This document shows, piece by piece, positions 188 to 18,393 of a stretch of DNA of 20,000 nt. The notes beneath the pieces are model-generated. The model made no database searches. It was not told where the DNA came from and was given only the letters and a program-made list of their open reading frames with translations. Made by a program: the position numbers and the translations under genes. The stretch lies in IMG/VR virus record IMGVR_UViG_2850639881_000002. One strand, written 5' to 3'. This DNA is from an uncultured virus (IMG/VR IMGVR_UViG_2850639881_000002) (taxonomy: Duplodnaviria; Heunggongvirae; Uroviricota; Caudoviricetes). Position 1 is the first letter of the stretch; every line of letters begins with the position of its first letter.

Positions 188-214
188 TTGACCTCACACC
201 CGCCCGCTTATCGT
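188..214 (+). promoter_or_regulatory. Putative late promoter 1 (capsid gene)
   Basis: TTGACC (188-193), 15-nt spacer, TATCGT (209-214). Same geometry in three other intergenic gaps, and it lies immediately after the terminator. Confidence 0.7.
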
Positions 215-335
215 CGATATCAGCAGCGGGTGGACCTGCGCGGCTCATGGCCTCTCCGGCTTGGCCCGGACCTATGAGCGCAAGCGGCCTCTCCTCCCCG
301 GTGTTTTCCCCTTTTAACATCGGAGCGATCCTTCC

Positions 336-1217
336 ATGACGATCAATGCAAATAACTGGAATACGACCCAGTTCGCCAACCGGGCGATGCACATCTACCA
401 GCAGAAAGGCAACCGCCTGCGTCCGACCGTGACCCAGGCGATCCGGATCGAGAACAACGAAAAGGCCGTTTTCTGGCTTGCCGGCAAGACCAAGGCGAAG
501 AAGAAGACCCGCCGCGAACGCAATATTCCGGGCAACGGCGAGCGCAAGAAATTCGAAGCCGCGCTCGAGACCTGGGTCGCCTTCGACACCGTCGAGGAAT
601 ACGACGTCGACCGCATGAGCGTGGACGAGAAGGAAATCGTCTACGAGAGCGGCGCCAATGCCCTCGGCCGCGCCACCGACATCGAGCTTTACGCAAAGAT
701 GAACGCCGCGATCGCATCGGGCGCCGTCCCCGCCGAGCTCGATTTCTCCGCCGGCGCTTTCTCCGCCGCGAACGCCTTGATGCTCTGCAAGCACCTGCAG
801 GACGACAAGGTGGCGTGGGACGGCAATGTCTATTGCGGCCTGCCTGCGTTGCAGTGGAACCAGCTGCTCGCCAACAAGATCGTCAATTCCGCCGACCATG
901 TCGGTTCGGATCTGCCCTTCGTGAAGGCGACCGACACCCGTTTCTGGAACGGCGTCAATTGGTTCCTCTTCGTCGAAGAGGATGCCCAGGATCTCTATCC
1001 CGTGCCCTCTGCGAACAAGCAGGACTTGTTCATCTGGCACAAGACCGCACTCGGCTGGGGCAACAACACGGATCTCCGCGTCATCACTCAGTGGGACAAC
1101 TACGAGGACTGCTGGACGGTCAACATGCAGGCGAAGGGCTGCGCCACCACCCTGCAGGAAGGCAAGGGCATCAAGCGCTTCCGCACCTCGTCGAACAGCG
1201 CGATCGCCGTCGTCTGA
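336..1217 (+). CDS. Major capsid protein
   Basis: 293 aa, GGAG RBS at 322-325. Motifs F...(M)HIYQQKG.RLR, ALGRATD, FWNGVNWF and HKTALG resemble podophage capsid proteins. Position between scaffold and tail tube genes fits. Confidence 0.85.
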   Translation: MTINANNWNTTQFANRAMHIYQQKGNRLRPTVTQAIRIENNEKAVFWLAGKTKAKKKTRRERNIPGNGERKKFEAALETWVAFDTVEEYDVDRMSVDEKEIVYESGANALGRATDIELYAKMNAAIASGAVPAELDFSAGAFSAANALMLCKHLQDDKVAWDGNVYCGLPALQWNQLLANKIVNSADHVGSDLPFVKATDTRFWNGVNWFLFVEEDAQDLYPVPSANKQDLFIWHKTALGWGNNTDLRVITQWDNYEDCWTVNMQAKGCATTLQEGKGIKRFRTSSNSAIAVV

Positions 1218-1232
1218 TCTTGAAGCCTGGTC

Positions 1233-1248
1233 GGGCGGTTCGCCGCCC
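1233..1248 (+). other. Stable RNA hairpin with UUCG tetraloop between capsid and next gene
   Basis: GGGCGG-TTCG-CCGCCC followed by a pyrimidine tract without a strong U-run. Could be a partial terminator or mRNA stabiliser. Confidence 0.6.
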
Positions 1249-1281
1249 TTCCACCTTTCCGCAAACCAGGAGATTTCTACC

Positions 1282-1560
1282 ATGGCCTTCGACATCAAGG
1301 GCTTTCGCACCGCCGACTACATGAGCAATCCGTCCGGCGCCGCCGGCGCCAATCTCGGCGTCCACAGGTACGTCACCAATGACGACCGGGCTGCGGTCGA
1401 AACCGCCGGCTACTTCAACGCGCTCACCTCGCGCGTGAAAGTCGGCGATCACATCGACATGACGCTCGACCTCGACGGCACTCCGATGCGCCGCAACTAC
1501 ATCGTCTCGAGCAACACCGGCGGCGTCGTCGCGATCGCTGCGCAGAACGTCGCCGCCTGA
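1282..1560 (+). CDS. Small conserved virion protein following capsid (possible decoration protein), 92 aa
   Basis: AGGAG RBS (1268-1272) then ATG 1282. Contains the TND..AAVETAGYFN....VKVGDHI pattern often seen after podophage capsid genes. The track start at 982 is an over-extension. Confidence 0.75.
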   Translation: MAFDIKGFRTADYMSNPSGAAGANLGVHRYVTNDDRAAVETAGYFNALTSRVKVGDHIDMTLDLDGTPMRRNYIVSSNTGGVVAIAAQNVAA

Positions 1561-1576
1561 CGTTTCGCGCTTGCGT

Positions 1577-1616
1577 GCCCCTGCCGGATCACGCCCCGGC
1601 AGGGGCTTTCCCTTTT
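1577..1616 (+). terminator. Probable intrinsic terminator after head genes
   Basis: 11-bp stem GCCCCTGCCGG (1577-1587) / CCGGCAGGGGC (1596-1606) followed by TTTCCCTTTT. The imperfect U tract suggests read-through into tail genes. Confidence 0.7.
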
Positions 1617-1630
1617 CAGGAGCGATTTTC

Positions 1631-4290: not shown

Positions 4291-4299
4291 GAGGCATGC

Positions 4300-4869
4300 A
4301 TGGAGCTTGCGGTCGCGGCTTTGGGGAAGGTTTTCACGGGGCTCGGGCTCGCCGGCGCCAGCGCTGGCGGAACGGCTGCTGCGACTGGCGCGACAGCGGC
4401 CGCCGGCGGTGCTGCTGCAGGATCCGGAGCGCTTAGCGCGCTGCAGGGCATTGCGACAACGCTCAAGGTGCTCGGCGGCATCGGTGCCGGCGTTGCAGCC
4501 CGCAACGAGGCCGAGGACGCGGCGGTCCAGACGGAGCTGCAATCCGGCCAGGAGCAGTTGCAATCCACCCAGCGGCAGACGTCGATGAAGCGTGAGCTCG
4601 CCCGTGTGCTCGGCCAGAACGACGTGATCTATGCCGCAGCCGGCATCGACCTATCCGGCGGCATCGCGCAGCAAACGGCGGCCGAACAGAAGGCGCGCGC
4701 CACAGACGAGATCTCGATCGAGCAGCAGGACAGCGAGTTCCGTCGCGCTCTCTATCGTCTTCGTGCCAGGGGCCAGCGCTCCGCCGGCCGATCGGCAATG
4801 CGGGGCGCCCTGATCGGCGCGATCGGCGACGTTGCGCAGTATGGCATGGATGTGGGGAACCGCGGCTGA
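4300..4869 (+). CDS. Small internal virion (ejection) protein, T7 gp14-like position
   Basis: 189 aa, AGGAGG RBS, Ala/Gly-rich hydrophobic N-terminus, Gln-rich helix and YAAAGIDLSGG motif typical of this class. Confidence 0.7.
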   Translation: MELAVAALGKVFTGLGLAGASAGGTAAATGATAAAGGAAAGSGALSALQGIATTLKVLGGIGAGVAARNEAEDAAVQTELQSGQEQLQSTQRQTSMKRELARVLGQNDVIYAAAGIDLSGGIAQQTAAEQKARATDEISIEQQDSEFRRALYRLRARGQRSAGRSAMRGALIGAIGDVAQYGMDVGNRG

Positions 4870-7460
4870 TGGCAAACAAGCAAGTTCGCAATCCGGGTCA
4901 GATCGCCCGCTTTGAGGAGACAGGCCGGATTTCCGCCGACGTTCCAGCTTTTGCGGTGGATACCGGATCCGCCGCTCGAGCGCTGGCGAGCGTCGCCGGC
5001 GGCCTCTCGGAAAATCTCGCCAGGCTCGCCGATCGGGCGGCCGCCCGTGAGGGTGAGCTCGCCGGCCTCTCCGCCGGCGCACAATCCGGCGCCGCCTATC
5101 TGCAGGCCCGCGCGACCGACGAAGCGGCCGCAGCTTCGAACAGGGGCCCTGGCGTCATGGTTCGGGCGCCGGGCGAATTGCGCAAGATCGTGTCCGACGC
5201 CGCTACCCGCCACGGCGTTGATCCGGGCGCGCTGCTCAAGATCGCGATGATCGAGAGTTCCTTCAATCCGAAGGCGAAGAACCCGAGCTCGAGCGCCGGC
5301 GGGCTGTTTCAGTTCGTCGATGAAACGGCGCGACAGTATGGCCTGGCCGATCGCTTTGATCCGGCCCAGGCCGCCGACGCGGCCGCCCGCCTGGCGAAGG
5401 ACAACGCGGCGCATCTGAAAAAGGTGCTCGGCCGCGCGCCGACTGCCGGCGAACTCTACCTTGCCCACCAGCAGGGCGCCGGCGGCGCCGCAAAGCTATT
5501 GAAGAACCCGAACGCCCGCGCCGTCGACCTCGTCGGCGCCAAGGCCGTTCGTCTGAATGGTGGTTCGGCCGACATGACCGCCGGCGCCTTTGCCAATCTC
5601 TGGATGAGCAAGGCAGGCGGCGGCGCGGCTGTCACCGATCCAACGACGACCGCCTCCGTCGCCAGCACGCCCCTGTCGCGCGAGCCGCTTGCACTTCGCC
5701 GCGATGGCACTATCCGCGGCGAGGCCTTCGACGATGCGGCCGCCTCCGCTTATGCCTGGCGCATGCAGGAAGGCCTTTCACGCGACCTTTTCGCGGCCCA
5801 GGCTGAATTCGAGGATGACCCGGCCGGCTTCGTCGCGGCCGCCGACAAGATCCGCAGCAATTACCTGCAGGACGAGGCTCTCGCGGATCCGCGCATGCGG
5901 GAGGGTTTCGATAAGTATTTCGCCCAGCGGTCGGAAGCGTACAGGGAAAACATCGTTGCCCGGCACGAGCGCCGCTTGCGCGACGAGCAGGAAGCGTCTT
6001 TCGCCAGCGGCTACTCTGCGCAGCTCGTCGACCTCGAGCGCCAGGCGCAGGTGCTCGGCGCCAACCCGAAGGGCGACCAGCTGATCGGCGACCAGGTCAG
6101 AACTTTCCAGGCGTCGATCGACGGCGCCGTTGCTTCCGGCACACTGTCGCCGGCGCAGGCGGAAAAGTACAAACTCGAGGTCGCGGAGACGGCCGCTCGA
6201 GGCCGGATCCAAGGCGTCTATGATGCTCTGCCGACGCCGGAGCGGAAGCGCGAGTTTGCGCTTTCCGTGCTCGACGACTGGCGCGAAGGCGAAGGGCCGC
6301 TCGCTGCCCTGCCTTACGACACCGTTCGCGGCATCACCGACAGCCTGCGGCGCGATGCTCAAAGTCAAGTCGAGGCGGCCCGGGCGGCCAACAAGGTCGA
6401 GGCGGCCCGCCTTACCAGCATGATCGACGACGACGTCGAGAGCATCACCTCGAGCGGCAAGGGGCTGCCAGGCGGCGCCGACGGTCTCGACCCTGCCAAG
6501 GTCGGCCAGGTGCTCGGCGCGGAGAAGCTCGCCGATTGGCAACTGAAGCGTGAACGCGCCGGCCGGATCTATGACGCGACCTCCGGCATGGAAACGCAAA
6601 CAGCCGAGGATATCGCCGAGCGCCTGGCGCTCCTGACGCCGAAAGCCGGCAGCATAGGTTTTTCCGAGCAAGCCGACGCGTTCGAGGCGGCACAGAAGAA
6701 GGCTTCCGCGGTCCTGAAGGCGCGCGCTGACGATCCGGCGGCCGCCGTTGAGAAGGCCTTTCCCGATGTCAAGCAGCTGGCGGCCGACGCAAACCCGCAG
6801 GATCCGGCTTCCATGCGAGCCCTCGTTTCCGCTCGCCTCCAGGCGCAGGACGCGATCGGCGTTGCCGAGCTCGCGCGCGAGCCGTTGACCCAGGCGGAGG
6901 CCAAAAATCTGGCGCGATCGGTCAGCCTGCAGCAGGATCCGAAGCTGCAGTCCGACGCGATCTTGCAGCTGGTCGACCAGGTGAGCACGGCTTATGGACC
7001 TCATGCCGAGCGCGTTCTGACGCAGGTTCTCAGTGTGCAGGGCATCGACAAGGAAATGGCCCGCAATGCGGCCGCCCAGTTCCGGCGGCTGTCAAAGGGT
7101 GGCGCCGTGACGACGAGCGATCGCCGCCAGGCGAAGGTGCTCGACGAGACGGCCGTCGCCGAGAGTTCGGCGCGGCCTTCGATGATCGGTGCGATCGAGG
7201 CCGGCGCGACGGCCGCACGCGCCGCGTCTGCAGGCAACAACCGAGTGGGCCCGGTCACCGGGCCGACCGGGCGCGCGGACAATCCGATGGAAGTGGTGCC
7301 CAGCCCGGCGCGCCAGTCGACCGATATGAGCTTCCCGGCGCGGCCGACGCTCGCGAGCATCCAGCATCTCAAGGAAAATCCGCAGCTCGCGCCCCAGTTC
7401 GACGCGCTCTTCGGCGAAGGTGCGGCCCGTCTCTACCTGCCGCCGGCAACAGGCCAGTAA
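4869..7460 (+). CDS. Internal virion (ejection) protein with SLT-type lytic transglycosylase domain
   Basis: 863 aa. IESSFNPKAKN..SSAGGLFQF...YLAHQQGAGGA motifs (about 5175-5615, putative catalytic Glu codon 5253-5255), long helical body, C-terminal LKENPQLAPQFDALFGEGAA motif. Confidence 0.85.
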   Translation: MANKQVRNPGQIARFEETGRISADVPAFAVDTGSAARALASVAGGLSENLARLADRAAAREGELAGLSAGAQSGAAYLQARATDEAAAASNRGPGVMVRAPGELRKIVSDAATRHGVDPGALLKIAMIESSFNPKAKNPSSSAGGLFQFVDETARQYGLADRFDPAQAADAAARLAKDNAAHLKKVLGRAPTAGELYLAHQQGAGGAAKLLKNPNARAVDLVGAKAVRLNGGSADMTAGAFANLWMSKAGGGAAVTDPTTTASVASTPLSREPLALRRDGTIRGEAFDDAAASAYAWRMQEGLSRDLFAAQAEFEDDPAGFVAAADKIRSNYLQDEALADPRMREGFDKYFAQRSEAYRENIVARHERRLRDEQEASFASGYSAQLVDLERQAQVLGANPKGDQLIGDQVRTFQASIDGAVASGTLSPAQAEKYKLEVAETAARGRIQGVYDALPTPERKREFALSVLDDWREGEGPLAALPYDTVRGITDSLRRDAQSQVEAARAANKVEAARLTSMIDDDVESITSSGKGLPGGADGLDPAKVGQVLGAEKLADWQLKRERAGRIYDATSGMETQTAEDIAERLALLTPKAGSIGFSEQADAFEAAQKKASAVLKARADDPAAAVEKAFPDVKQLAADANPQDPASMRALVSARLQAQDAIGVAELAREPLTQAEAKNLARSVSLQQDPKLQSDAILQLVDQVSTAYGPHAERVLTQVLSVQGIDKEMARNAAAQFRRLSKGGAVTTSDRRQAKVLDETAVAESSARPSMIGAIEAGATAARAASAGNNRVGPVTGPTGRADNPMEVVPSPARQSTDMSFPARPTLASIQHLKENPQLAPQFDALFGEGAARLYLPPATGQ

Positions 7461-7463
7461 CGG

Positions 7464-7490
7464 TTGACCTGATTTCCGGAGCCATATCCT
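7464..7490 (+). promoter_or_regulatory. Putative late promoter 2 (polyvalent protein gene)
   Basis: TTGACC (7464-7469), 15-nt spacer, TATCCT (7485-7490) in a 57-nt intergenic gap. Confidence 0.7.
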
Positions 7491-7517
7491 GCGAGCCTCC
7501 ACCACTGCGAGGCTCAA

Positions 7518-10500
7518 ATGGCAGACGAGGAAATCGGCGGCATCAATCCCTTCACCGCGTTTCAGCAGCAGCAGGACGCCACGGTCGAGAACCTCGATCC
7601 GGGGCTCCTCGATCGCTTCTGGACAAACTTCGAAGCTGGCCAACGACACAACACCGTCCTCGGCGCCACCTACGACGCATCGACGCCCAGCCGCCAGGAA
7701 GAACGCAAGCGCTTCGACCGCTCCTATGAGACCTATCCGGAGTGGGACGGCCTCCTCGAGGGCGGCGCCGCGCTCTCCGGCCAGATCGCCGGCACGGCGG
7801 CAAGTCCGGAAAACTTCATTCCGATCGGCGTGGGTGAAAAGATCGTTGTCGGAGCAAAGTCGGCCGTCACTGGCATTTGGGCCCGGATTTTCTCCGGCGC
7901 CGTCGACGCCGCGGCCGCCAATGCCGTTTCTGACGCGGCCATTCAGGGGATCGAAATCCAGTCGGATTTCCGCGAGCAGTTTGACCCGGTCCAGTATGGC
8001 GCGGGCATCCTCCTCGGCGCGGGCATCGGCGGCGCCGCCGGCGGCGCTGGCAAGGTGATCGGTGATCGCACCGGTCGCGCTGCGACCATCGACGAGGCAG
8101 CTCCGAGCCAGGCGGCTGAGGCTCCGGCCGACAATCCCTTCTTGCCTCTTCAGCAGGCGCAACCCGCCAGCGGTTCTCCTGAACCCATAGCGCGGCCGGC
8201 CGCCGCCGAACCTGCGCCGGCGCCGGTCTCGCGTCCTGCCGCAATCGAGCCAGCGCAGTCCGCCGCGCCCGCCGATACGATCGGCGAGACGCTTTCGGCC
8301 AAAGCGTCAGAGGCTCGAGGACTTGCAGTGCCTGCCGACCAGGTCGATCGCGTTGCAAAGAGTGCCGTGGACGTCGGCAAGGCGCCGAGGCGGCCGCAGT
8401 CCCTGACTGACTTCCTCGCTGCAGAGGGCGGATTGCGGGACGACGGCGGCGAGCTCGCCGCGATGGGCGTTTCGCGGAAGTTCGTTCCCGGGCGCGGTGC
8501 ACTCGTGCGCGCCGGCGGCCAAGAGCTCGACAAGGCGAGAGAGGCTGCGGCGCAGGCCGGCTACTTCAACCACCTTTACGGATCCGCGGACGAGGCGACG
8601 GCGAAAAGCACGGTGCGCGACCTGCTCGACCTGGTCGACCAGGAGAACCGCGGCAAGCCGGCATTCAGCATGGCGGAGGCCGATCGCGTGGCCGCCGTGC
8701 AGGACTATGAAAACGCACTGACGGCGCGTGACGACTATCGATCCTTTGTCGACCGGATCGCCACGACCCTCAATGAGATGGACGCCGGCGTAACCCTTGA
8801 TGATGCTGTCCTTGCCCGTGCAACCGACATCATGATAAACGAGAAGTTAGACCCGCTCGACGCATTCGATCGGGCAATTCTCGAAGAAGAGGCACGCCTC
8901 GAGGCGGCAATAGCGGAACGTGGTGGCAGCGATGGCAGCAGCAAATCAGACGCAATCCCCTTCTTCGACGACGAGCCAGCCGGCGGATCTGCTCAAGCGG
9001 GCGGCCGCTTGGGAGGAGCGCAGCAAGGCGGCGGATCCGGAAGACGCCGCGCACATGCAGCGGACGGCGAACAATCTCCGGCTGCTGGCGGCTCTGCGCG
9101 AGCAGAAGACGGCGTAGTTTCCGGCGAGCGGGCGCTGATCGAGACCGCCCGGCAAGAAAAGCAAGCAGGCGATTTCCTGATGGCGCAGCCGCTCACCGGC
9201 TTGCGCGCACAACGCACGCGATCGGGCGCGATCGCCAAAGGCGCCGTTGAGCGCATTGCCAGGGTGAGCGAGACTGCCGAGGCTCTTGCCAAGGCGCTCG
9301 ACGTCGCGGCCACTCGACAGGGCCGGATCTCCGGCGGCAAGCGGGTGCGCGGTACCTTTGACACGCGCGACAGTGTGGTGCGCGTGCGATCGCTCGACGA
9401 TTTCGACGTGCTGACCCATGAATACGGCCATCACCTGGACGCGAAGATCCCGGCGGTGAAGGCCTTCATTAGCAAGCATTCTGCCGAGCTCTCGAAACTC
9501 GACTATGATCCTGTCGCCGGCCGCGACTATGAAGGCTTTGCCGAGTTCTTCCGGCTCTACCTCACCAATCGCGCCTATGTCGACGCGAACTACGCGCCGA
9601 TCGCCGCCGAGTTTCGCCAGGTGCTCGACCAGGTGCCGGAGATGCGCGACGCGATCGACGCGGCCACTCAAGCGTGGGACGCCTTCCTTTCGGCCCCTTC
9701 GTCCGTGGCGGTGCGATCGACCATCGTTTCCGCGAAAAAGGAAGGATGGGTAGCCTCCGCCGCAAAGGAGCTCAAGAAATCGGGGCTCGGCGGCACGATC
9801 GCCGACGTCCTGCAGCGGATCTACACTTTCGCCTTCGATGACCTCAATCCGATCAACCGGGCCGTCTCCTATCTGCAGGATCTCCATCTCGAGAACAAAG
9901 GAAAGCCGCTCGATCTGAAGGTCACGGCGGATCCGTACAAGCTTGCCCGCATGTCCCGGGGTGCCTATGCGGCCGGGCACATGGATGTGATGTACGGCGT
10001 CGCGCCCTACCGCGGCATTCATCCGGCAAGCCCGTCGCTGCGCGATGCGATCATCGAGGCGACCGGCAAGCCCAACGCAATGTCCGGCTGGGATGAGGAG
10101 AAGGTCGCGGAGTTCGGCTCCTATCTCTGGTCCAGGCGCGCGATCGGCGAGTGGGAGCGATATCGCAAGGGCGAAATTCCGAACCCTCCAGACAAGCTCA
10201 CCGAGGCGGATCACGTCCAGAACGTTGCCGACCTCGAGGCGGCAAACCCTGCTTTCGTCTCGGCCGCGGCGAAGGTGCACGAGTTCTCTCGAGCGCTTTG
10301 GCGGAAGAAGCTCGAGGCAGGCCTGATCGACCAGACGACCCACGACGAGGGCCTGTTGATGCGCGACTATGTGCCGGGCCTGCGCGATTTCTCGTCAGAT
10401 ACCGACACGAAGGTGCCGGCGGGACGGTCGAAGGGGAAGACGGCAAAGGGCGGTTTCGCTCGCCGTTTCAAGGGCTCGAAGCGCGATGTCATCAATCCGC

Positions 10501-12824
10501 TCGAGAGCTTGGCGGCCGACGCCTATGAGACCGCCATGGCGATCGCGCGCAATGACGTTGTCAAAGCGCTGCACCGCCTGGCAGTCAATGCCGGAGAAGG
10601 CGCCGGCAGGATCGCCGAGATCATTCCGGCGAAAGAGCTGCGCGCCTCGATGATCGACCCGCTCGAAGCGATCGAGAACGCGGCCAAGGCCGCCGGCCTC
10701 TCCAAGCCCGATATCGTCGTATTGCGCGACGCGGTCGAAAGTGCTGTCGGTTCGGAAAAGGCCGCCGTCTTCCGTCCGGCGATCATCAACGAAAAGGGCG
10801 AGCCGATCGCCTTTTTCCGCGACGGCGGTCAGCTGAAGGCGCTGCGCCTGGCGGACGGTCAATTCGGTCTCGACATGTATCGGACCCTCGTTGCGATGAG
10901 CCAGCACGAGAAAAACTTCTGGCTCGAACTCGTCGCAATCCCCGCGCGGGTCCTGCGTGCCGGCATTACGACGTCGCTTGAATTCATTGGTGCGAACTTC
11001 GTCCGCGACCAGGCAATGGCCTCCGTCTACTACGGTAAGCCGCTGCAGCGGATCGCCAGCACTTTCCGCGGCGGCTTCGACGAGGTGACCGGAAAGGAAA
11101 TCGCGCGCTCCTATTCGCGCGTCTACGGGATCTCCGGCGGCAGCGAGACGGCCTCGCTGTCGAAGGCGATGGCGAAGCGGGACATTTCCGCGCTCAAACG
11201 CAAGGGCTGGATCGCGCAACGCTTCACCTCCTTCCGCGGCGTGCTCGAGGCAGTCGAGATCTCCGAGACCGCGACCCGCCTCGGCCTGTTCCGGACGTTC
11301 CAGCAGGAAGCCAAGGCGCGCGGTCTCAGCGAGCATGAGGCGCTGTTCGAGGCGGCCTACCGCGCGCGCGACTATCTCGATTTCGATCGACGCGGATCCG
11401 GCATGGCGGCGCTGGCGCGCGTCATCCCCTTCCTCAATGTCGCGCTGCAGGGCCTCGACAAGGCTGGCCGGCACATGATTATGCCCGTCGCGCGCAAGGT
11501 GCTCGGCCAAGCCACCTCCACCGAAGACGCCAGGGCGGCCGCGCTCGCGGCCAAGACGTGGGCGCGCCTGGCTGTGCTCGTGACCGGCTCCGTTTCCCTT
11601 TACGCTCTGATGAGCCGGCACGAGGACCATGACGAGATCTCGGAAACGACCAGGTCGACGCATTGGATGGTGAAGACTGGCGATCGGTGGACGGCCATTC
11701 CTAAGCCGTTCGAATTCGCCGTCGCCATCAATCTCGGCGAAGCAATGTTCGACACCATGGTGCGCAAGGATCCGTCGGCGGCCGGGCGCTGGTGGGACAG
11801 CCTGTCGACGACGCTCACGCCGCCGTCTCTCCTTGAGGGCAACCCAGCGATCAAGAGCTATTTCGAGCTCAAGTCGAACAAGAACTTTTTCACCGACGCG
11901 CCGATCGTGCCGGAGCATCTGCGCGGGATGGAGCCGTTCCTGCAGTACACCGAACGGACTTCCGCCTTCTCCAAGCAGCTCGGCGATATCTTCAACGTCT
12001 CGCCAGCCGTCAGCGATCACCTGATCACTTCCTTCGGCGGCAGCTGGGGCCGCAATCTTCTGTCGCTCTACGACCTGGCGCAGCCCGACGCGCCGGCGGC
12101 CGGCTGGGACGATGTGCCCTTTGCCCGCCGCTTCATCAAGGATGCCGCGAAAGGCGCGCAGTCGACGACGATGTTTTGGGAGCTCGCCGGCGCCCAGGAA
12201 GGAAAGCTCGAGGGCAAGGCCTTGAGCTGGCGCGAGCTCGCCGAGGCTGGCGACGCCGCAGGTGCTGCCGACTTCTTCGCGGGTCTCCACCAGGTCGAGA
12301 AGGCCTATGTCGCAGTTTCCACTCACGAGGCGAAGGTGAAGCGTCTTCATCCGATCATCCGCGCCCGCGGCGCCATCCAGGCGATCGGCGCCATGCGCCG
12401 CGAGCTCGCGGCCAATGACGTCCGCGACGCAGACGGTGAAGCGGTCTCGGTGAGCTCGGCCGAGCGCGGCGCCGCCGACGATATCCTTTCTGACCTTTCT
12501 ATGGTTGTCGCTCGCAACGCGCTGCGAGAGGCCGGTGTTTCCGGATGGGCCCAGCGATCGGAGATCGACGAGACAGGGTACTACCGCGAGCTCGAGGCAC
12601 TGAACCCCGCCCTTATCGATCGACTTGGCAGCGGCTATGCCGGCAAGAAGGTATGGAACTGGGAAGCGGTCAAATCCGCCTGGCCGGATCTGCGCGATCG
12701 TCTCCTCGAGGAGGGAAGCAACGCGACCGTCGACGACCTGGTCGCAGACGTCGAGAGCCAGGGGTTCGCGGTCGACGGCGTGAAGGCAAAGCGGCGGGAA
12801 AAGCCGGAGCTCATCCCCGGTTGA
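7518..12824 (+). CDS. Large polyvalent/ejection protein with zincin-like HExxH module and LPD38-like C-terminal region
   Basis: 1768 aa. THEYGHHLD (HEYGH 9417-9431) with downstream EGFAEFF. DF.R.G....L...IPFLN..LQG, IPKPFE (11697-11714) and PIVP..L...P..QY patterns resemble LPD38-containing phage proteins. Position before the tail fibre fits. Confidence 0.8.
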   Translation: MADEEIGGINPFTAFQQQQDATVENLDPGLLDRFWTNFEAGQRHNTVLGATYDASTPSRQEERKRFDRSYETYPEWDGLLEGGAALSGQIAGTAASPENFIPIGVGEKIVVGAKSAVTGIWARIFSGAVDAAAANAVSDAAIQGIEIQSDFREQFDPVQYGAGILLGAGIGGAAGGAGKVIGDRTGRAATIDEAAPSQAAEAPADNPFLPLQQAQPASGSPEPIARPAAAEPAPAPVSRPAAIEPAQSAAPADTIGETLSAKASEARGLAVPADQVDRVAKSAVDVGKAPRRPQSLTDFLAAEGGLRDDGGELAAMGVSRKFVPGRGALVRAGGQELDKAREAAAQAGYFNHLYGSADEATAKSTVRDLLDLVDQENRGKPAFSMAEADRVAAVQDYENALTARDDYRSFVDRIATTLNEMDAGVTLDDAVLARATDIMINEKLDPLDAFDRAILEEEARLEAAIAERGGSDGSSKSDAIPFFDDEPAGGSAQAGGRLGGAQQGGGSGRRRAHAADGEQSPAAGGSARAEDGVVSGERALIETARQEKQAGDFLMAQPLTGLRAQRTRSGAIAKGAVERIARVSETAEALAKALDVAATRQGRISGGKRVRGTFDTRDSVVRVRSLDDFDVLTHEYGHHLDAKIPAVKAFISKHSAELSKLDYDPVAGRDYEGFAEFFRLYLTNRAYVDANYAPIAAEFRQVLDQVPEMRDAIDAATQAWDAFLSAPSSVAVRSTIVSAKKEGWVASAAKELKKSGLGGTIADVLQRIYTFAFDDLNPINRAVSYLQDLHLENKGKPLDLKVTADPYKLARMSRGAYAAGHMDVMYGVAPYRGIHPASPSLRDAIIEATGKPNAMSGWDEEKVAEFGSYLWSRRAIGEWERYRKGEIPNPPDKLTEADHVQNVADLEAANPAFVSAAAKVHEFSRALWRKKLEAGLIDQTTHDEGLLMRDYVPGLRDFSSDTDTKVPAGRSKGKTAKGGFARRFKGSKRDVINPLESLAADAYETAMAIARNDVVKALHRLAVNAGEGAGRIAEIIPAKELRASMIDPLEAIENAAKAAGLSKPDIVVLRDAVESAVGSEKAAVFRPAIINEKGEPIAFFRDGGQLKALRLADGQFGLDMYRTLVAMSQHEKNFWLELVAIPARVLRAGITTSLEFIGANFVRDQAMASVYYGKPLQRIASTFRGGFDEVTGKEIARSYSRVYGISGGSETASLSKAMAKRDISALKRKGWIAQRFTSFRGVLEAVEISETATRLGLFRTFQQEAKARGLSEHEALFEAAYRARDYLDFDRRGSGMAALARVIPFLNVALQGLDKAGRHMIMPVARKVLGQATSTEDARAAALAAKTWARLAVLVTGSVSLYALMSRHEDHDEISETTRSTHWMVKTGDRWTAIPKPFEFAVAINLGEAMFDTMVRKDPSAAGRWWDSLSTTLTPPSLLEGNPAIKSYFELKSNKNFFTDAPIVPEHLRGMEPFLQYTERTSAFSKQLGDIFNVSPAVSDHLITSFGGSWGRNLLSLYDLAQPDAPAAGWDDVPFARRFIKDAAKGAQSTTMFWELAGAQEGKLEGKALSWRELAEAGDAAGAADFFAGLHQVEKAYVAVSTHEAKVKRLHPIIRARGAIQAIGAMRRELAANDVRDADGEAVSVSSAERGAADDILSDLSMVVARNALREAGVSGWAQRSEIDETGYYRELEALNPALIDRLGSGYAGKKVWNWEAVKSAWPDLRDRLLEEGSNATVDDLVADVESQGFAVDGVKAKRREKPELIPG
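8932..9117 (+). CDS. Putative overprinted small helical protein (61 aa) in +1 frame inside the polyvalent gene
   Basis: GGTGG 5 nt before ATG 8932. 38 of the last 44 sense codons end in G/C, while the main frame drops to about half and becomes Gly/Ala/Arg low-complexity. Confidence 0.6.
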   Translation: MAAANQTQSPSSTTSQPADLLKRAAAWEERSKAADPEDAAHMQRTANNLRLLAALREQKTA

Positions 12825-12847
12825 CCTTACTCCCCTCATGAAAAACT
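12821..12847 (+). promoter_or_regulatory. Putative late promoter 3 (tailspike gene)
   Basis: TTGACC (12821-12826, contains the upstream TGA stop), 15-nt spacer, AAAACT (12842-12847). Confidence 0.6.
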
Positions 12848-12871
12848 GCCCTCGTCACAAGAGGGACTTTC

Positions 12872-15043
12872 ATGAGCGTCGTTCTACCCATCAACGAAGA
12901 TGACCGTTTCCGCATTCTCACTGCATCAGCCGGGCAGACCCTTCTGGCGATCACGTTCCCCTGGCAGGATGACAATGACATTGTGCTGTTCAAGAAGGTC
13001 ATCGGTGAGTGGGTGGAGCTCTCTCGCCCTGAAGACTACACCCTTTCTGGGGCTGGAGCGTCGGGTGGCGGAAGCGCAACGCTGACGACGCCGGCGATCG
13101 CCGGCGAGGAGTATCTGGCCCTCGGGTCCGCGGTGCTCGATCGCCTCTCGTCGATTGTCCGCGACGGCCGCTTCAATTCGAAGACCGTCGACGACGAGCT
13201 CGATCGCAACCGCATCATCCAGCAAGAGCAGGCCCGCGATCTCAAGCGGGCCTATCTCGCTCCTGTCGGTTCCACTGGTGGCGAGGTCCTGGCTTCCGAG
13301 CCTGGGCAGTTCCTGATCCGTGATCAGGACGGCAACATCGTTGGCAGCGATCCGCCCGATGGCGCCGGAAACATGAATACCGGCATCTATGATCCGCAAA
13401 GCGTGGGTGGCGATGTCTTCGATCAGATGAACTGGGGGCACTTCCCGAACATTGCCACCTTTATGGCGTTCGCACCGGCCGGCTTTGTCTCGTTTGCAAC
13501 CGTCTACGGCTACTATCTTCCTGGCGACTGCCCCCTGATGACATTCCGTCGCGTCGCCTCGCAGCCGAACCACAACGGCAAGATACAGACTGCCAACGGC
13601 GCTTGGTGGGAACTGAAGGTTTCCAAGGCCGATATCCGCATGTTCGGCGCGAAGGGTGACTATGTCACTGACGATCTAGCCGCAAGCGTGTCTTGGCTCG
13701 CCTTCTATGAAATGACGGGCACGCCACTCACCATGTCGCGCGGTATCTACAAGTGCACGAACAATCTTGTTCTTCCGAAGCGGGTCATCATCCATGGCGA
13801 TGGTGCCCCGAGCATGGCATCGTTCCCGCAATTCGACGAAGGCGACAAGTCGAATATGCGGCCAGGGTACAAGGCCAACATCAAAGGCGCGGCGTTCATC
13901 TTCAGCGGCGCTCCAACGAACGCCTACACAACGACCCGCGGCGACAAATTCGCTTCGACGAAGCCGTGCCTGCTCTACGATCATTTCGCACCTCCGGAAT
14001 TGACCGGCTTCGGCATCCTCCAGGATATGGACATCTTCGACGCCGCCGGGAACCTGACGACCGGAGCAACCGACAATAAGGCCGCGCTCTATACTGGCGG
14101 CCTGCTTTCCCGCGCTACGCTCTCCCGTTTCCGCGAGCTGACCATTTTCGGATACTTCGCGAACCAGGGCGCCATCGCCGTCAACAAGCTCGGCGATCTT
14201 CCGGCGGGGGCGAACGACCCCGATTATCAATCGTTCAATGGCTGCTCTATTACTGGCGGCGTTGCGGTCATCGGCGGCGACACCGCTACGCCTCTTAGCG
14301 AAGGTAATACCGGAACCCGCTTCACGGATTGCTGGATCTATGGGCCGGACCATCACACGCGCGCCGATACAAATCCGGCCATTCCTTGCGTCTATATCGA
14401 CATGGCGCTGACGACGACGCAGCAGGGCCGCGGCGTTCACTTCTCGAACTGCAATCTGCGCACCGTCGTCAACGATGCGATCAAGCTCGACCATGCAAAT
14501 GACTGGTCTTTCTCGAACTGCGCGACCGAATTTTCGGAAGTTGTCGGCGTCACAGGCCTCGATCAGCGAGGCGAAATCAAGGGAACCGCCAACACGCAGG
14601 GCGGCTCCATCATCAACGTCGCGGCTACCGGCCACCTCGGCTTGCGCGCTCTGAAAAACCAGATCGAAACGAACGGCTTCAATCTGAATGTTATCGGCAC
14701 GGCAAACGCCAGCTTGGCATCGATGCTCAAGGTCGAAGCGGTGACTTATAAGGGCGGCGGCACTATTGCCGTTGCATCGAGCACGATCGTCCCGACGACG
14801 AGCTATCATGTTATCGACGCGACCGGGAACCCTACGATCACGACGATCGACCTGACGAACATTGCCGAAGGCCAGATAATGGAATTCCGCAAGACCAACA
14901 CGGGCACCGTCACTTTCCAAGAAAGCGGCGGCAACTTGGCGATGAACGCCGCAACGGCGGCCCTTGGTGCTCAGGCGGACGTCATCTTCTTCCAGCGGGT
15001 CGGATCAAACGCTTACCAGCACTACTTCTCCGACAACGCATAG
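12872..15043 (+). CDS. Tail fibre/tailspike with T7-type N-terminal anchor and pectate-lyase-like beta-helix (putative polysaccharide depolymerase)
   Basis: 723 aa. N-terminal GQT...ITFP...DYTLSG.G...GG..TL anchor, GYY.PGD and MFGAKGDYVTDD motifs that open tailspike beta-helices, repeated F.(N/D)C strands. Confidence 0.8.
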   Translation: MSVVLPINEDDRFRILTASAGQTLLAITFPWQDDNDIVLFKKVIGEWVELSRPEDYTLSGAGASGGGSATLTTPAIAGEEYLALGSAVLDRLSSIVRDGRFNSKTVDDELDRNRIIQQEQARDLKRAYLAPVGSTGGEVLASEPGQFLIRDQDGNIVGSDPPDGAGNMNTGIYDPQSVGGDVFDQMNWGHFPNIATFMAFAPAGFVSFATVYGYYLPGDCPLMTFRRVASQPNHNGKIQTANGAWWELKVSKADIRMFGAKGDYVTDDLAASVSWLAFYEMTGTPLTMSRGIYKCTNNLVLPKRVIIHGDGAPSMASFPQFDEGDKSNMRPGYKANIKGAAFIFSGAPTNAYTTTRGDKFASTKPCLLYDHFAPPELTGFGILQDMDIFDAAGNLTTGATDNKAALYTGGLLSRATLSRFRELTIFGYFANQGAIAVNKLGDLPAGANDPDYQSFNGCSITGGVAVIGGDTATPLSEGNTGTRFTDCWIYGPDHHTRADTNPAIPCVYIDMALTTTQQGRGVHFSNCNLRTVVNDAIKLDHANDWSFSNCATEFSEVVGVTGLDQRGEIKGTANTQGGSIINVAATGHLGLRALKNQIETNGFNLNVIGTANASLASMLKVEAVTYKGGGTIAVASSTIVPTTSYHVIDATGNPTITTIDLTNIAEGQIMEFRKTNTGTVTFQESGGNLAMNAATAALGAQADVIFFQRVGSNAYQHYFSDNA

Positions 15044-15048
15044 CGCGC

Positions 15049-15288
15049 TCACTCGCTGTAGTAACCGTCGCCTGGGGCGGCGGTCTCGACCTCGTCAGCC
15101 TCGTGATCGACATAGGGCTCTCGAAGAGCCGAAAGAAAATCTGCGAGGTCGGCCTCGCGCCGGCGCGCTATTCCGAAGTATTTGGAAAATGCGTCGACGA
15201 GTTCTTCGACTGGTCTAGCATCCACAACAAGGGCGGCGAGGTCACCGCCCGACAGCAGCTCGCGGGTTCCAATTTGGTTCTCGGTCAT
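15049..15288 (-). CDS. Small acidic hypothetical protein (79 aa), third gene of the minus-strand cassette
   Basis: GAGGA RBS overlapping the methyltransferase stop, ATG at 15288 (MTENQIG...), stop 5 nt from the convergent tailspike stop. Confidence 0.55.
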   Translation of the reverse strand: MTENQIGTRELLSGGDLAALVVDARPVEELVDAFSKYFGIARRREADLADFLSALREPYVDHEADEVETAAPGDGYYSE

Positions 15289-15296
15289 CAAAGTCC

Positions 15297-15977
15297 TCAC
15301 TTAATGTTCGTTATCACGCATACGAGCTGGCTCGCCCGGTTCCTTCGACAGTCGATCCGGGCCAACCTAGCGCCTGGACAGTAGCGCCAGAATAGGGCCA
15401 GCCAAGCAGAAGGCGGCATCACGGTCAGGTGACTGTGTCCATCATCGTAGCAGGCTATGACATGGTACTGCAGGGGTGAAGAGGAAACACATTTGGCGAC
15501 AACCTTGGCGAGGTCCGAAGGCGCGAAATGCTCAAGAACGTCGGCGGAGCAAGTGATGTCCCCGCCCGGGATTTTGTCCTTCGTCACGTCGGCTCGCCGG
15601 AAGAACACGTTCTTGGGCCGGTCTACGAACTGAGGCGACAAAGCCCAATCCACTGCATAGACCTTGCGAACGCTGCCAGCGATCTCCTTTGAAAAGGCGC
15701 CATTGCCGCAACCGATCTCGACTACGATCCTCGCATTCGACGCTAAGATCGTTTGCTTCTCCGCCAGCAGCCAGTTGTTTTCCTGATAGCCAGCGTCCTC
15801 TTCGTGAAGGTGCTGGTAGTACGATGCATCGATTGTGGAAGAGCGCTGACGTGGGAGCACTACGGTCTTTGCGACCAGGCTGGTAAGAGGATCTTCGATC
15901 CTCCAACCTGTTTTCATCAACAGTTCTGCTTGCCGAGTCTCTGCCGCGACGAGTGCTTCCTCAACCGCCGACAGCAT
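15297..15977 (-). CDS. Class I SAM-dependent methyltransferase
   Basis: VVEIGCGNG (motif I), VYAVD, ADV, D.....DVLEHF. Start uncertain (15977 overlapping the upstream gene, or 15917). Confidence 0.85.
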   Translation of the reverse strand: MLSAVEEALVAAETRQAELLMKTGWRIEDPLTSLVAKTVVLPRQRSSTIDASYYQHLHEEDAGYQENNWLLAEKQTILASNARIVVEIGCGNGAFSKEIAGSVRKVYAVDWALSPQFVDRPKNVFFRRADVTKDKIPGGDITCSADVLEHFAPSDLAKVVAKCVSSSPLQYHVIACYDDGHSHLTVMPPSAWLALFWRYCPGARLARIDCRRNRASQLVCVITNIK

Positions 15978-18228
15978 CAGATGCGATCCGGCGGGCGGCG
16001 TTATCGGCCCGCATCTGGAGGATGATGTCGATCAGATCTTCGATCTCGATCAGCTTGCCGGTGTCGGGATTGAGGTAAACGGACTGATTGATACAGGCCA
16101 CGTGAAATAGCTCCTCGATAGTTCTCCTCTGGGAGCGTCTTTGGACCGGGCTGCGGTCGTCGGTCAATCCCCATCCGGAGTAAAAAGGCGCTCCGAAGGT
16201 TACCACTTCCTTGCCGCGCATCAGGCCCTCGAAGCCAACCTGGGACGAAACGGTGTAGATCTTGTCGCAGCGATCGATGATAGAGCCGATCGTCACTTCA
16301 TCCGGCAACACCGTGATCTCCCCAATGTTCCTGTTGCGGTAGGAATTCATGTTTCGCTGGATGCTGTCGGGGTGCCTCTTGAAGTAGATAGGCCTGCCGG
16401 GGTTTTCTTCGACAGCCGCCTCGAGCATGCGATGGAAGCTATAGTCATTGGCGCCGGCGAACTGGATGGAGGCGTCTCCCTTCTTCTGATCGATCACCAG
16501 GACAGCGCCCGGTTCTATCTCGAACTCCGCACCTTCGACATATTTGTTGTACTTGGTGATCCCCTCTGCGCAGATCCTATTAATGACCGCGCGGGCGCGT
16601 CTTGCTTCCTGATCCGTTAGGACGAAGTCCGGACTATTGAGGGTCTTCTCGATGCGTGACGGCTGGCGGGCGTCGAAATAATAACCGAGATCATCGATCA
16701 TAAAGCCAAGGGCGCGGCGCTCGTTCAACGTCGCGTCTGGGTCAAAGTATGAGGCGAATGCACCGAAGAGGGCTACCTCGGTGAAGTAGAGCGGCAGATC
16801 GTAGAGATAGGCAGTGTCGACGCAATCCCAGAACATGTCCTGTTCGATGCGCTGCGAGAGCAAGAAAACTGCGTCCGGCAGACGATCGGTGAAAAAGGTA
16901 AAGTGCGAAGTCTTCGTCAGCGTTTTGATGTTCTCGGCATAGCCTCCTTCCATGTCCTTCTTGAAAACATTGGACATGATCACCGAATTGGCAGGCAGCG
17001 CTTCGATCATGGCGCGGGCGCTGAAAGCCGCGGGAGCGTTCGCAGATCTGCTGACTAGGATGTTCTTCAGGGTGACGCCTAGATTTGCCGCCTGGGCGGC
17101 CTGCGCCTTTGCTGCCGGTGCAGTCTTCTTCTCCAGGGCCTCGAGCCGCCGCTCGAGCTTTCCCACTGCCAGCCTAGTCTTCCGGATCCGGGTAAAGCTT
17201 ACGACAGTTGCGGGGACGATGACCGTCAGGAATTTGCCCAGAGTCGTTTTCTCCGCGGCGGCTTTTTTGTTGGTCTGCTTCGGTTTGGCGGCCGGGCGCG
17301 GCGCCTCGAGCCTTTCAGGCTTTGTTATTTCCTGCGCGTACGGCGTCAGGGCGAGATAGTCGAACCACTCTTCTGCCCGTGGGTGTTCGAGCGACATCCA
17401 TGGTTTCCGCTTCAGAGTATAATGGATAATGGCCGGATCGGTGATCGCTGCCTTCGCCTCTGACCTATCCATGTAGTTCTCGATACCAGCGACCTTGTCG
17501 ACCCAGTCGGGCTTGAACATCGATCCGTGCACGTTCCATTTCACCGGAAGGTACTTAATCGAGCCGAAGAAGAGTTCGGTGATGATCTGCTGGTCTCCGA
17601 GCACCAGGCGATAGCGGTTGCTTTCGAGATAGCGCTCGACGAGCTCGCTGAAGCCGATCGCGCGCATCAGGTCGACGTTTACGAGCAGGACGCCAGCATT
17701 CGGGTGTTTGGCGCTCTCTGCCAGGCCGAACTTGGCATTATACGTCCTGGAGATGGTATCCTCGACGCCGGCGAAGAGCGCGCCGTCGAAGGGCGTTGCA
17801 AACAGTTCGTCGATCGAATTGCGAATGATGAGGTCGCTGTCGAGGTACAGCACCTTGCGGGCGTCGACTGGCAGGAGCTTGTGCATCAGTAGACGATAAT
17901 AGGTCGCGATCGAGATGCCATCAGAGGTCTTGATGTTCTTGAACAAGCTGGCGTCAACAGGGATCTCGTGCAGCTGGAAATCGCAAAGAGAGCGCAACGC
18001 ATCAATCTTTGCGCGCTCGGTCTCCGGTAGCGGTTTGTCGATGAGCACGAACACGCGAATTGCCTGCCGTCCGGTGTAGCTCTTCAATATCGATGCGAGC
18101 GTGACTGCAGTAAAGCGGATGTATCTCTCGTCCGACGCGAAGACCAAATCGACCGTTTCCTGAACTGGCTCAATGTGGCCGGCAGCTTTAATGCGCTCGA
18201 AGGCGACAGGGCTGAGTGCGAGAGACAT
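15961..18228 (-). CDS. Fusion of family 8 glycosyltransferase (N-term) and KpsC/RkpZ-like capsular polysaccharide (beta-Kdo transferase, GT107-like) domain (C-term)
   Basis: GT8: FASDERY, TYYRLL, KVLYLDSD, NAGVLLVN, GDQ, IIHY...KPW. KpsC-like: DDLGYYFDARQPSRIE, ITKYN, VLVIDQ..GDASI, KRHPD, YTVSSQVGFEGLMRGK.V..FGAPFYSGWGLTDDR. GGAG lies 8 nt before ATG 18228 (alternative start 18234). Confidence 0.9.
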   Translation of the reverse strand: MSLALSPVAFERIKAAGHIEPVQETVDLVFASDERYIRFTAVTLASILKSYTGRQAIRVFVLIDKPLPETERAKIDALRSLCDFQLHEIPVDASLFKNIKTSDGISIATYYRLLMHKLLPVDARKVLYLDSDLIIRNSIDELFATPFDGALFAGVEDTISRTYNAKFGLAESAKHPNAGVLLVNVDLMRAIGFSELVERYLESNRYRLVLGDQQIITELFFGSIKYLPVKWNVHGSMFKPDWVDKVAGIENYMDRSEAKAAITDPAIIHYTLKRKPWMSLEHPRAEEWFDYLALTPYAQEITKPERLEAPRPAAKPKQTNKKAAAEKTTLGKFLTVIVPATVVSFTRIRKTRLAVGKLERRLEALEKKTAPAAKAQAAQAANLGVTLKNILVSRSANAPAAFSARAMIEALPANSVIMSNVFKKDMEGGYAENIKTLTKTSHFTFFTDRLPDAVFLLSQRIEQDMFWDCVDTAYLYDLPLYFTEVALFGAFASYFDPDATLNERRALGFMIDDLGYYFDARQPSRIEKTLNSPDFVLTDQEARRARAVINRICAEGITKYNKYVEGAEFEIEPGAVLVIDQKKGDASIQFAGANDYSFHRMLEAAVEENPGRPIYFKRHPDSIQRNMNSYRNRNIGEITVLPDEVTIGSIIDRCDKIYTVSSQVGFEGLMRGKEVVTFGAPFYSGWGLTDDRSPVQRRSQRRTIEELFHVACINQSVYLNPDTGKLIEIEDLIDIILQMRADNAARRIASDAVGG

Positions 18229-18261
18229 TCTCATTTCTCCATGGATTTTTTCCGTGGAGCG

Positions 18262-18333
18262 GTTCTACCGTTGCAGCGCACAAATTGGAAGGTGCATTAG
18301 GCTCATCGTAGGTAGCTGGAAATTGCATGACAG
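18262..18333 (-). promoter_or_regulatory. Candidate host sigma70-type promoter(s) for the minus-strand cassette
   Basis: On the minus strand: CTGTCA (18333-18328)-N17-TACGAT (18310-18305) and TTCCAA (18290-18285)-N17-TAGAAC (18267-18262), in an AT-richer gap. Confidence 0.4.
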
Positions 18334-18342
18334 GCGCCGCAT

Positions 18343-18369
18343 TTGACCTCACCCGAGCCATCGTAGGCT
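18343..18369 (+). promoter_or_regulatory. Putative late promoter 4 (lysis genes)
   Basis: TTGACC (18343-18348), 15-nt spacer, TAGGCT (18364-18369). Confidence 0.7.
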
Positions 18370-18393
18370 TCAGCATCGAGGATGCTGGAGCCT
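18365..18393 (+). promoter_or_regulatory. 13-bp hairpin sequestering the endolysin RBS
   Basis: AGGCTTCAGCATC-GAG-GATGCTGGAGCCT (one G.U pair). The GGAG at 18387-18390 is in the 3' arm and ATG is at 18398. Confidence 0.7.

Follow-up and report, generated by a model that had tools for sequence, protein, structure and literature searches.

The window analysed here is a stretch of 20,000 nucleotides from an uncultured virus of the Caudoviricetes (IMG/VR IMGVR_UViG_2850639881_000002), and it is the reverse strand of a 25,863-bp IMG/VR record that is estimated to be 70% complete. It carries four copies of a short bipartite element, a TTGACC box followed after exactly 15 nt by a hexamer resembling a −10 box, which are best read as late promoters of a temperate podovirus family of Hyphomicrobiales. 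The signal is real and lies far beyond chance. In 43 non-duplicate related loci (820 kb), the pattern TTGAC-N16-TANNNT, which is a 15-bp spacer by E. coli counting (TTGAC-N16-TA), occurs 108 times on the strand of the structural genes and not once on the opposite strand. Phage late regulons with a dedicated promoter class are known; the rigid 15-bp TTGAC-type variant is new. A limited literature search found no description of this promoter class.

A bipartite element with a fixed spacer

The sequence TTGACCT is found in the window at 188, 7464, 12821 and 18343, on the + strand only. These four copies compare with a mean of 1.18 in shuffled sequence, and at least four were seen in 7 of 200 shuffles. 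The earlier note on this DNA had placed the copies in or at short gaps before the capsid, polyvalent protein, tailspike and endolysin genes, and had seen, exactly 15 nt past TTGACC, hexamers that keep the second and sixth bases of a −10 box (A2 and T6). Direct reading bore out both statements at all four sites. The sites and the terminators close to them are:

188–214, + strand: P3, the late promoter of the capsid gene; TTGACC (188–193), 15 nt, TATCGT (209–214), inside the 202-nt gap upstream of that gene
7464–7490, + strand: P4, before the LPD38 polyvalent protein gene; TTGACC, 15 nt, TATCCT (7485–7490)
12821–12847, + strand: P4b, before the tailspike-like gene; TTGACC, 15 nt, AAAACT (12842–12847), a weak −10 that keeps A2 and T6
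18343–18369, + strand: P5, the lysis cassette promoter; TTGACC, 15 nt, TAGGCT (18364–18369), in the divergent gap before the endolysin gene
153–173, + strand: strong intrinsic terminator, 9-bp stem with 8 GC pairs and a T run, ending 15 nt before P3
1577–1606, + strand: strong intrinsic terminator at the end of the capsid transcription unit; 11-bp stem, 10 of its pairs GC

The TTGACCT of P4 lies 4 nt past the stop of the SLT-domain gene and 54 nt before the start at 7518. P4b overlaps the TGA stop of the polyvalent gene (12822–12824), and its TTGACCT is 51 nt before the start at 12872. An Rfam match to SorX at 120–179 overlaps the hairpin of the 153–173 terminator; it scores 30.7 bits, below the gathering score of 46.6, and is most likely spurious.

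The remainder of the contig holds two further copies of TTGACCT on the same strand as the window sites and none on the other. At −2994 (window coordinates), inside an open reading frame (ORF) called orfX, TACCCT stands at the identical distance. The copy at −2708 lies within a small ORF, 47 nt before the portal start; it has GGCCTC where the −10 is expected and is probably not a member of the promoter class. TTGAC is exact at 6/6 sites of the contig, so that the −35 half is close to TTGACA, and A2 and T6 are kept at five of the six. The 15-bp spacer falls outside the 17 ± 1 bp expected for sigma70. A standard sigma70 scan of the window with 16–18-bp spacers returned two weak matches where 3.3 were expected; the short-spacer sites are therefore the sole recurrent promoter-like signal in the window.

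Related loci were found in 33 viral contigs and at 16 places in bacterial genomes, which we take to be prophages. Their hosts are Martelella, Pseudochrobactrum, Phyllobacterium, Rhizobium, Stappia, Labrenzia, Roseibium, Hoeflea, Ancylobacter, Ahrensia and one Magnetovibrio metagenome-assembled genome. Complete members of the family measure 35.5–40.9 kb and encode an integrase and a CI-like repressor, and the family is therefore temperate. Ten relatives that are 96–100% complete were used for genome-wide counts. The closest complete relative, G002, has a capsid protein 96% identical to that of the window, and the most distant relative, G015, one that is 34% identical (its genome is 92% complete).

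The comparison redefined the unit. The earlier note had taken the 7-mer TTGACCT as the motif, which does not hold across the 49 related loci: its seventh base is unconserved, and the bare 7-mer occurs 50 times on the + strand and 85 times on the − strand. Drawn from 119 unique sites, the logo gives (c)GGTTGAC(C/G)-N15-TAnC(G/C)T. The sixth −35 base is C or G in 109 of these sites, and the base preceding TTGAC is G in 101. Upstream information in the logo is confined to three bases (c, G, G), and the stretch from −20 to −4 is flat.

The spacing is rigid. The note had made its proposal depend on conservation of the spacing in related phages, and this was borne out: against the 108 sites at N16, each of the other spacings from N11 to N22 gave 0–5 in the same 43 loci, with one at N17 and none at N18. 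The second half of the element also emerges when it is not required in the search. Downstream of 85 unique + strand copies of GGTTGAC, T is found in 87% at +17, A in 93% at +18, C in 73% at +20 and T in 92% at +22; in the same check, minus-strand copies of GGTTGAC showed no base preference downstream.

At orthologous positions, N16 is kept in 30/34 loci for the site before the terminase module (P1), in 36/39 for the site inside orfX (P2) and, with NANNNT as the second half, in 31/40 for P3. In eight of the nine loci that have no N16 site at P3, TTTACC stands at the same spacing (by eye). Each of these three sets contains 25–29 different spacers with a mutual identity of only 41–46%, so it is the length that is kept. 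The P2 hexamer overlaps a Tyr codon and a variable codon (TAC-CCT, -GAT, -TCT, -CGT, -GGT), and the third base of the latter stays T in a G+C-rich genome. That this wobble T is kept while the residue varies suggests that the DNA signal as such is under selection.

The element is specific to the late genes, as the note had supposed in calling it a late-promoter motif. Strict sites in the ten complete relatives number 37, every one of them on the late strand, and 36 lie at or past the first late site. In five complete relatives the pattern has 5, 6, 4, 5 and 3 matches, with none on the reverse strand and 0–2 in a backward-read control. Eight of the ten have 3–6 strict sites, and G009 and G010 have one and two (more there with NANNNT); each family genome has about five or six copies of the element. 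The early regions of 9/10 complete genomes contain no strict site. The first late site, P1, lies approximately 300 nt upstream of a conserved 198-aa gene and the large terminase gene. Start codons follow the sites after 21–32 nt (short leaders) or approximately 120 nt (capsid). The sites usually present are:

P1: terminase module
P2: inside orfX, ahead of the portal gene
P3: capsid gene
P4: polyvalent protein gene, in some lineages
P4b: tailspike gene, usually with NANNNT as the second half
P5: lysis cassette

Genomes G002, G003 and G005 carry the P4 geometry at the corresponding position, as do loci L009, L012 and L014. An equivalent of P4b (TTGAC-N16-NANNNT) lies 34–58 nt before the spike homologue in 9/10 complete relatives; it is present in G002–G006, G009, G010, G012 and G013 and not in G011. 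For P5, an N16 site near the right end was found in 5/5 relatives (G002–G006), 49–65 nt before an ATG (by eye); the gene behind it was matched to an endolysin in G002 only. G015 has no N16 site on either strand, and the element is therefore a trait of a subfamily and not of the virion fold.

A conserved site of another kind, cTTGAC-N9-CAAATCA, lies in the early region beside the CI-like gene of seven complete relatives (G002–G005, G009, G010, G012). In 6/7 of them a C precedes TTGAC, as in the host consensus CTTGAC. We considered this early geometry as a host standard and rejected it because it has no clear −10 and hence is unusable for the purpose.

Leaders downstream of the sites

At P4, P4b and P5, a predicted hairpin begins 0–2 nt past the hexamer, and its 3′ arm holds or abuts the Shine–Dalgarno (SD) sequence of the next gene (3/3):

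7493–7515, + strand: hairpin starting 2 nt past the −10 of P4; the 3′ arm holds GAGG, the SD of the 7518 gene
12849–12865, + strand: hairpin CCCUC/GAGGG, pairing the SD of the tailspike-like gene
18370–18388, + strand: hairpin directly past the −10 of P5, partly pairing the SD region of the endolysin gene
215–335, + strand: 5′ leader of the capsid gene, conserved and structured; it contains GGUGUUU, the SD AUCGGAG and two GGCCUCUCC boxes that resemble an anti-SD

The P4 hairpin has a predicted energy of −13.4 kcal/mol (z = −3.1), equalled by 2 of 200 shuffles, and relatives carry equivalents of different sequence. The P4b hairpin has −8.7 kcal/mol (z = −1.7). The one at P5 has −9.6 kcal/mol (z = −1.2), which is weak alone, and the pattern recurs in relatives. 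We folded 28 unique leaders from the contig and its relatives, at least four of which belong to capsid or internal sites whose start was assigned wrongly. In 25 of the 28 the first paired base is at most 4 nt from the hexamer, and z is below −1.5 in 16. Where an SD could be recognised (24 leaders), at least 75% of it is paired in 16. The hairpin arms differ between phages and between promoters, and a common protein operator is therefore unlikely.

The capsid leader (approximately 120 nt) is of a different type. In an alignment of 26 relatives it is highly conserved, and of the 23 pairs that RNAalifold gave, 10 show compensatory changes, mostly in a central hairpin. The leader has no match in Rfam, and its single-sequence fold is no better than that of shuffles (z = 0.11). 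It may represent a novel cis-regulatory RNA associated with capsid genes.

The P1 leaders show a further feature. Three direct repeats of (C)TGTCTA lie between P1 and the 198-aa gene in 24/33 leaders (e.g., L003:3565–3590), approximately 30–40 nt past the −10 of P1. Other lineages change the unit in concert, to TGTCCCG, GTGTTTC or GTGTTGC. The array looks like one that is bound by a protein, perhaps the recognition site of the small terminase.

Possible readers of the late elements

The balance of the evidence tips slightly towards sigma70-type late promoters that require a phage factor. The combination of TTGAC with the A2/T6 pattern points to a sigma70-type holoenzyme. A phage factor is suggested by the rigid sub-optimal spacing, the distinct flanks, the absence of the element from early regions and the need to keep the lysis genes silent in the lysogen. 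In such a scheme, host RNA polymerase (RNAP) with RpoD alone would use promoters with a 15-bp spacer poorly, and the structural and lysis genes would be off in the lysogen. An early phage product would then make the 15-bp geometry usable; it could be an activator or sigma-appropriating protein acting at or near GGTTGAC, or an unrecognised phage sigma factor. The short-leader promoters may carry a second lock. The DNA past the −10 would encode the 5′ arm of the SD-pairing hairpin, so that read-through RNA would be translated poorly, while transcripts starting 6–8 nt past the −10 would omit this arm and be translated, as for T4 gene e.

The argument from spacing depends on what the hosts use. 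According to one table of consensus sequences (Table 3, PMC4943231), spacers are 15–19 in E. coli, and the consensus is CTTGAC-N16-23-TATNNT for SigA of R. etli, CTTGAC with a spacer of ~17 and cTATat for S. meliloti, and TTGACGS-N10-14-GCTANAWC for Caulobacter. The part of a start-site study of S. meliloti that we used searched RpoD promoters with spacers of 17–19, and RpoH promoters with 15–16 and a 7-nt −10. In the excerpt used of a Methylorubrum paper, mapped promoters have spacers of 16–18, and the authors state that the alphaproteobacterial consensus lacks the −7 T (PMC9320726). In a Phyllobacterium host, gTTGAC-N19-TATATA lies 509 nt before the 16S gene in 3/3 rRNA operons, a candidate promoter with an 18-bp spacer. 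The phage sites are 2–3 bp shorter than these published or candidate housekeeping promoters of the hosts.

As far as those two sources go (PMC4943231, PMC9320726), the phage sites share with the housekeeping promoters of Hyphomicrobiales and Caulobacter the TTGAC −35 and the TA..T outline of the −10. The host consensus has a C before TTGAC, a variable spacer (~17 or 16–23) and a weak or absent −7 T, whereas the phage sites have GG before TTGAC, a single fixed 15-bp spacer and the −7 T in 92%. The earlier note had called the 15-bp spacing unusually short, and had expected it to be nearly silent. The first part stands against S. meliloti (~17) and Methylorubrum (16–18). The range tabulated for R. 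etli just includes the phage geometry; near silence is thus a rule of E. coli that may not transfer.

Host genomes were scanned for the same geometry. In one genome, where 100 of 494 matches were listed, the distribution over spacings was flat (15 at N16, 9–15 at the others), and at least three of the 15 N16 matches listed lie inside the prophage locus. In 800 kb of host DNA, non-coding matches numbered five at N16 and 2–8 at other spacings, under a crude gene masking that called 61% coding. Scans for CTTGAC-N13-21-TATANT in three host genomes (G001, G007, G008) returned 14 matches, eight of them at N14; the backward-read control gave 22–27 per genome.

Phages with dedicated late promoters offer the closest parallels. 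In the late promoters of P2 (Ogr) and P4 (Delta), of Mu (C) and of P1 (Lpa), the −35 is poor or absent and the activator has a site of its own, which is a dyad near −55 for Ogr, lies at −30 to −55 for C and is an inverted repeat near −22 for Lpa. To our knowledge, temperate phages with several late promoters (P2, Mu, P1) all use activators. As in these phages, several promoters with one motif stand ahead of packaging, head, tail and lysis operons, are confined to late operons and presumably cannot be used by unaided host RNAP. Unlike in these phages, the −35 here is consensus, there is no separate activator site, and nothing but the rigid 15-bp spacer looks defective. T4 middle promoters combine a MotA box at −30, which is unlike the −35 consensus, with sigma appropriation by AsiA. 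They share with the present sites a box at a fixed distance near −30 over a sigma70-type −10, and here too a phage factor would re-fit region 4 of sigma70; they differ in that the box here contains TTGAC. The ORFs scanned showed no homologue of MotA or AsiA. MerR promoters are over-spaced (19–20 bp) and hold a dyad operator in the spacer. The likeness lies in non-optimal spacing between a good −35 and a good −10 as the off state; here, in contrast, the spacer is short, unconserved in sequence and has no shared dyad.

Two further systems resemble separate parts of the proposed scheme. As described in the portions of two papers that we used (PMC11150451, PMC9638019), GafY and the N-terminus of GafA are small DnaA-like activators of phage-derived gene transfer agent (GTA) clusters in alphaproteobacteria; they act through RpoD-dependent promoters, GafY makes contact with RpoD domains 3–4, and Hyphomicrobiales encode the DnaA-like portion of GafA in a small gene of its own. 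The bacteria concerned belong to the same class as the hosts here, and the present family also encodes a small DnaA-like protein. The GafY system, by the same account, has its site far upstream with an IHF site between, a degenerate −35 and antitermination by GafZ, whereas the phage −35 here is consensus. The scan of G002 ORFs brought up no protein resembling DUF6456/GafZ. For the hairpins, the parallel is T4 gene e and I-TevI, where, in the part of the source used, a late promoter lies inside a hairpin that sequesters the ribosome-binding site (PMC3014915). There, as predicted here, only locally started transcripts would expose the SD. The T4 late promoter in that account is a lone TATAAATA read by gp55, and the element here is bipartite.

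What the factor could be was sought in the early region. In G002 this region encodes an integrase, a CI-like repressor (HTH_3 with a UmuD-like C-terminus), a ParB-like protein, a Toprim primase, a 619-aa primase-like protein and one 120-aa Trans_reg_C protein. We considered the Trans_reg_C protein as a universal activator and rejected it, as it was not found in G009–G013, nor by tblastn in any of the other nine complete relatives. A protein of approximately 90 aa is present in 10/10 motif-bearing genomes (e.g., L054:7106–7378). Its gene lies directly before the Toprim primase gene, at the head of the replication genes. The AlphaFold2 model of this protein (predicted local distance difference test score 93.6) aligned in VIA-align with DnaA domain IV (1j1v, 3pvp) at Z 11.0, with a root-mean-square deviation of 1.9–2.1 over 78–80 of 90 residues, and with sigma region 4 and other helix-turn-helix (HTH) domains at Z of 6.2 or less. 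In Foldseek, the best match of the model was DnaA at E = 0.13, with nothing at E ≤ 0.001, and a profile search of PDB sequences gave nothing significant (best E 0.37). PF08299 was found in three distant sequence relatives.

The 90-aa protein has approximately 105 close homologues in public data. A search for it in unrelated phage families, meant to test its co-occurrence with the motif, yielded 18 loci, all on contigs of 18.6–59 kb (one of 109 kb) and mostly in records that the capsid search had already returned. Just upstream of its gene, 9/10 genomes carry an Xre-like ORF (81–88 aa, with sub-threshold HTH matches). Together with this neighbour, the 90-aa protein is a weak candidate for the activator, a lead and not a finding, because its gene heads the replication genes and because G015 has a weak homologue and lacks the motif. 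G015 also lacks the Xre-like ORF, orfX and the 198-aa protein; of these early genes it has the one for the DnaA-like protein. A likeness of the −10 half to a DnaA box was also looked at by eye (TTATCGTCA against TTATCCACA, 7/9 at the capsid site) and dropped, the other sites being poor.

A more elaborate version of the phage-factor reading can be put forward tentatively, and we somewhat doubt that it holds in full. It describes an undescribed, family-wide switch of two levels, in which a small early protein re-fits RNAP for GG-marked promoters with a 15-bp spacer, and the anti-SD hairpins form the second lock. The re-fitting protein may be the DnaA-domain-IV-like protein, in the manner of GafY and acting at the −35 itself, or its Xre-like neighbour.

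Several points weigh against a required phage factor or against the forms of it considered here. The counts across relatives are non-independent events. The flat host scans favour neither side. The sole clear transcription-factor domain found, Trans_reg_C, was not found in the other complete relatives, and a phage sigma factor, which the earlier note had offered as an alternative reader, finds no support in the ORFs scanned, where no curated sigma family was matched at cut-off. The 90-aa protein has only sub-threshold Pfam matches, to Sigma70_r4_2 and KorA; its weak homologue in G015 (28% identity) coexists with a genome that has no N16 site, and it may instead be an origin-binding protein. 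The hairpin z-scores in the window (−3.1, −1.7, −1.2) are modest. The phage is present in four RNA-library runs (X1–X4, one study) as contigs only, in one run as a single 35-kb contig, and these contigs carry no starts, strands or usable levels; low or no cover there proves nothing. One strict site, G013:3815, lies in an early region. Finally, going by the tabulated consensus (Table 3, PMC4943231), the R. etli range reaches N16 at its lower limit, and the Caulobacter range (14–18 from TTGAC to TA) includes it.

The last two points speak for a simpler account, in which a lax host RpoD reads TTGAC-N16-TAnnnT unaided and lateness comes from copy number after replication, from relief of silencing or from early read-through. 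TTGAC is also the −35 consensus of the hosts, and TAnnnT fits the TATNNT tabulated for R. etli. We nevertheless consider this account unlikely. A lax range of 16–23 does not account for finding 108 sites at a single spacing and 0–5 at each of the others, nor for the lack of sites in the early regions of nine of the ten complete genomes. The site conserved in seven early regions has another architecture, and the candidate rrn promoter of the host uses N19. A freely read consensus −35 before a holin–endolysin cassette would, moreover, be dangerous in a lysogen.

Rigid spacing of approximately 15 bp is common among group 3 and extracytoplasmic function (ECF) sigma factors, so the sites could be read by an alternative sigma factor of the host, such as a stress sigma that is active in SOS or induction. 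In favour of this, the RpoH spacer of S. meliloti is modelled, in the part of the study used, as 15–16 with a 7-nt −10, which is shorter than the 17–19 of RpoD. Such a reader is nevertheless improbable. In the RpoH-type CCTATAT, the A and the final T are 3 apart and not 4, and the distance from TTGAA to TA is 17–18 and not 16. Copies in a host regulon would also be expected, and the host scans (100 of 494 matches listed; 800 kb) are flat.

That the elements are not promoters at all, being instead a binding site of a phage protein (for packaging, replication or partition) or a by-product of coding sequence and stop codons, is hardly credible: two sites do overlap coding sequence (the stop codon at 12822–12824 and the internal site at −2994) and a DNA-binding protein predicted to resemble DnaA domain IV is universal in the family, but the strand bias is strict (37 against 0), the sites stand 21–32 nt or approximately 120 nt before start codons and directly past a terminator, the second half keeps A2/T6 of a −10 while the spacer sequence is free, and T6 is kept at a wobble position though the amino acid varies.

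The signal gives a precise and testable definition of the late regulon in a widespread, unstudied family of temperate podoviruses, and the motif is a practical marker for annotating transcription units in prophages of this family. If a factor is needed, a spacer length below the optimum would by itself be the off state, the mirror image of MerR promoters. The system could give a tight, orthogonal promoter–activator pair for alphaproteobacterial genetics, and it may link phage late control with the DnaA-like activators of GTAs.

Gene order of the window and minor observations

The window has a G+C content of 55–68%, and its + strand carries a late module of podovirus type. The genes that frame the sites are:

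336–1217, + strand: capsid gene (PF19821)
+ strand, in the late module: tail tubular proteins A and B
4869–7460, + strand: SLT-domain internal-virion protein gene
7518–12824, + strand: LPD38 polyvalent internal-virion protein gene, 1768 aa
12872–15043, + strand: tailspike-like protein gene, ATG at 12872
15297–18234, − strand: methyltransferase gene and GT8/capsule-synthesis glycosyltransferase gene (757 aa), between late genes
18398–19147, + strand: GH108 endolysin gene
19467, + strand: holin-like gene (three transmembrane segments), forming the lysis cassette with the endolysin gene
Left of the window, 5.4 kb of the contig: large terminase, small ORF (orfX), portal and scaffold genes

Among deposited phages there is no close relative: megablast returned one 1% match, and tblastn with the capsid protein returned two records at 24–28% identity. 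The PhiGT1 paper on Rhizobiales podoviruses makes no mention of promoters or transcription.

The minus-strand cassette at 15297–18234 is moron-like. It lies inside the late region and has its own terminator-like hairpin at 15250–15231. In three of the RNA-library runs the longest contigs span 14.4–18.8 kb, the region of this cassette, although contigs cannot rank expression. The highest word depth in the RNA contigs of X2–X4 (~16–110) falls at 8672–10672, within the polyvalent protein gene, and could reflect a shared repeat, an internal transcript or sequence of another organism.

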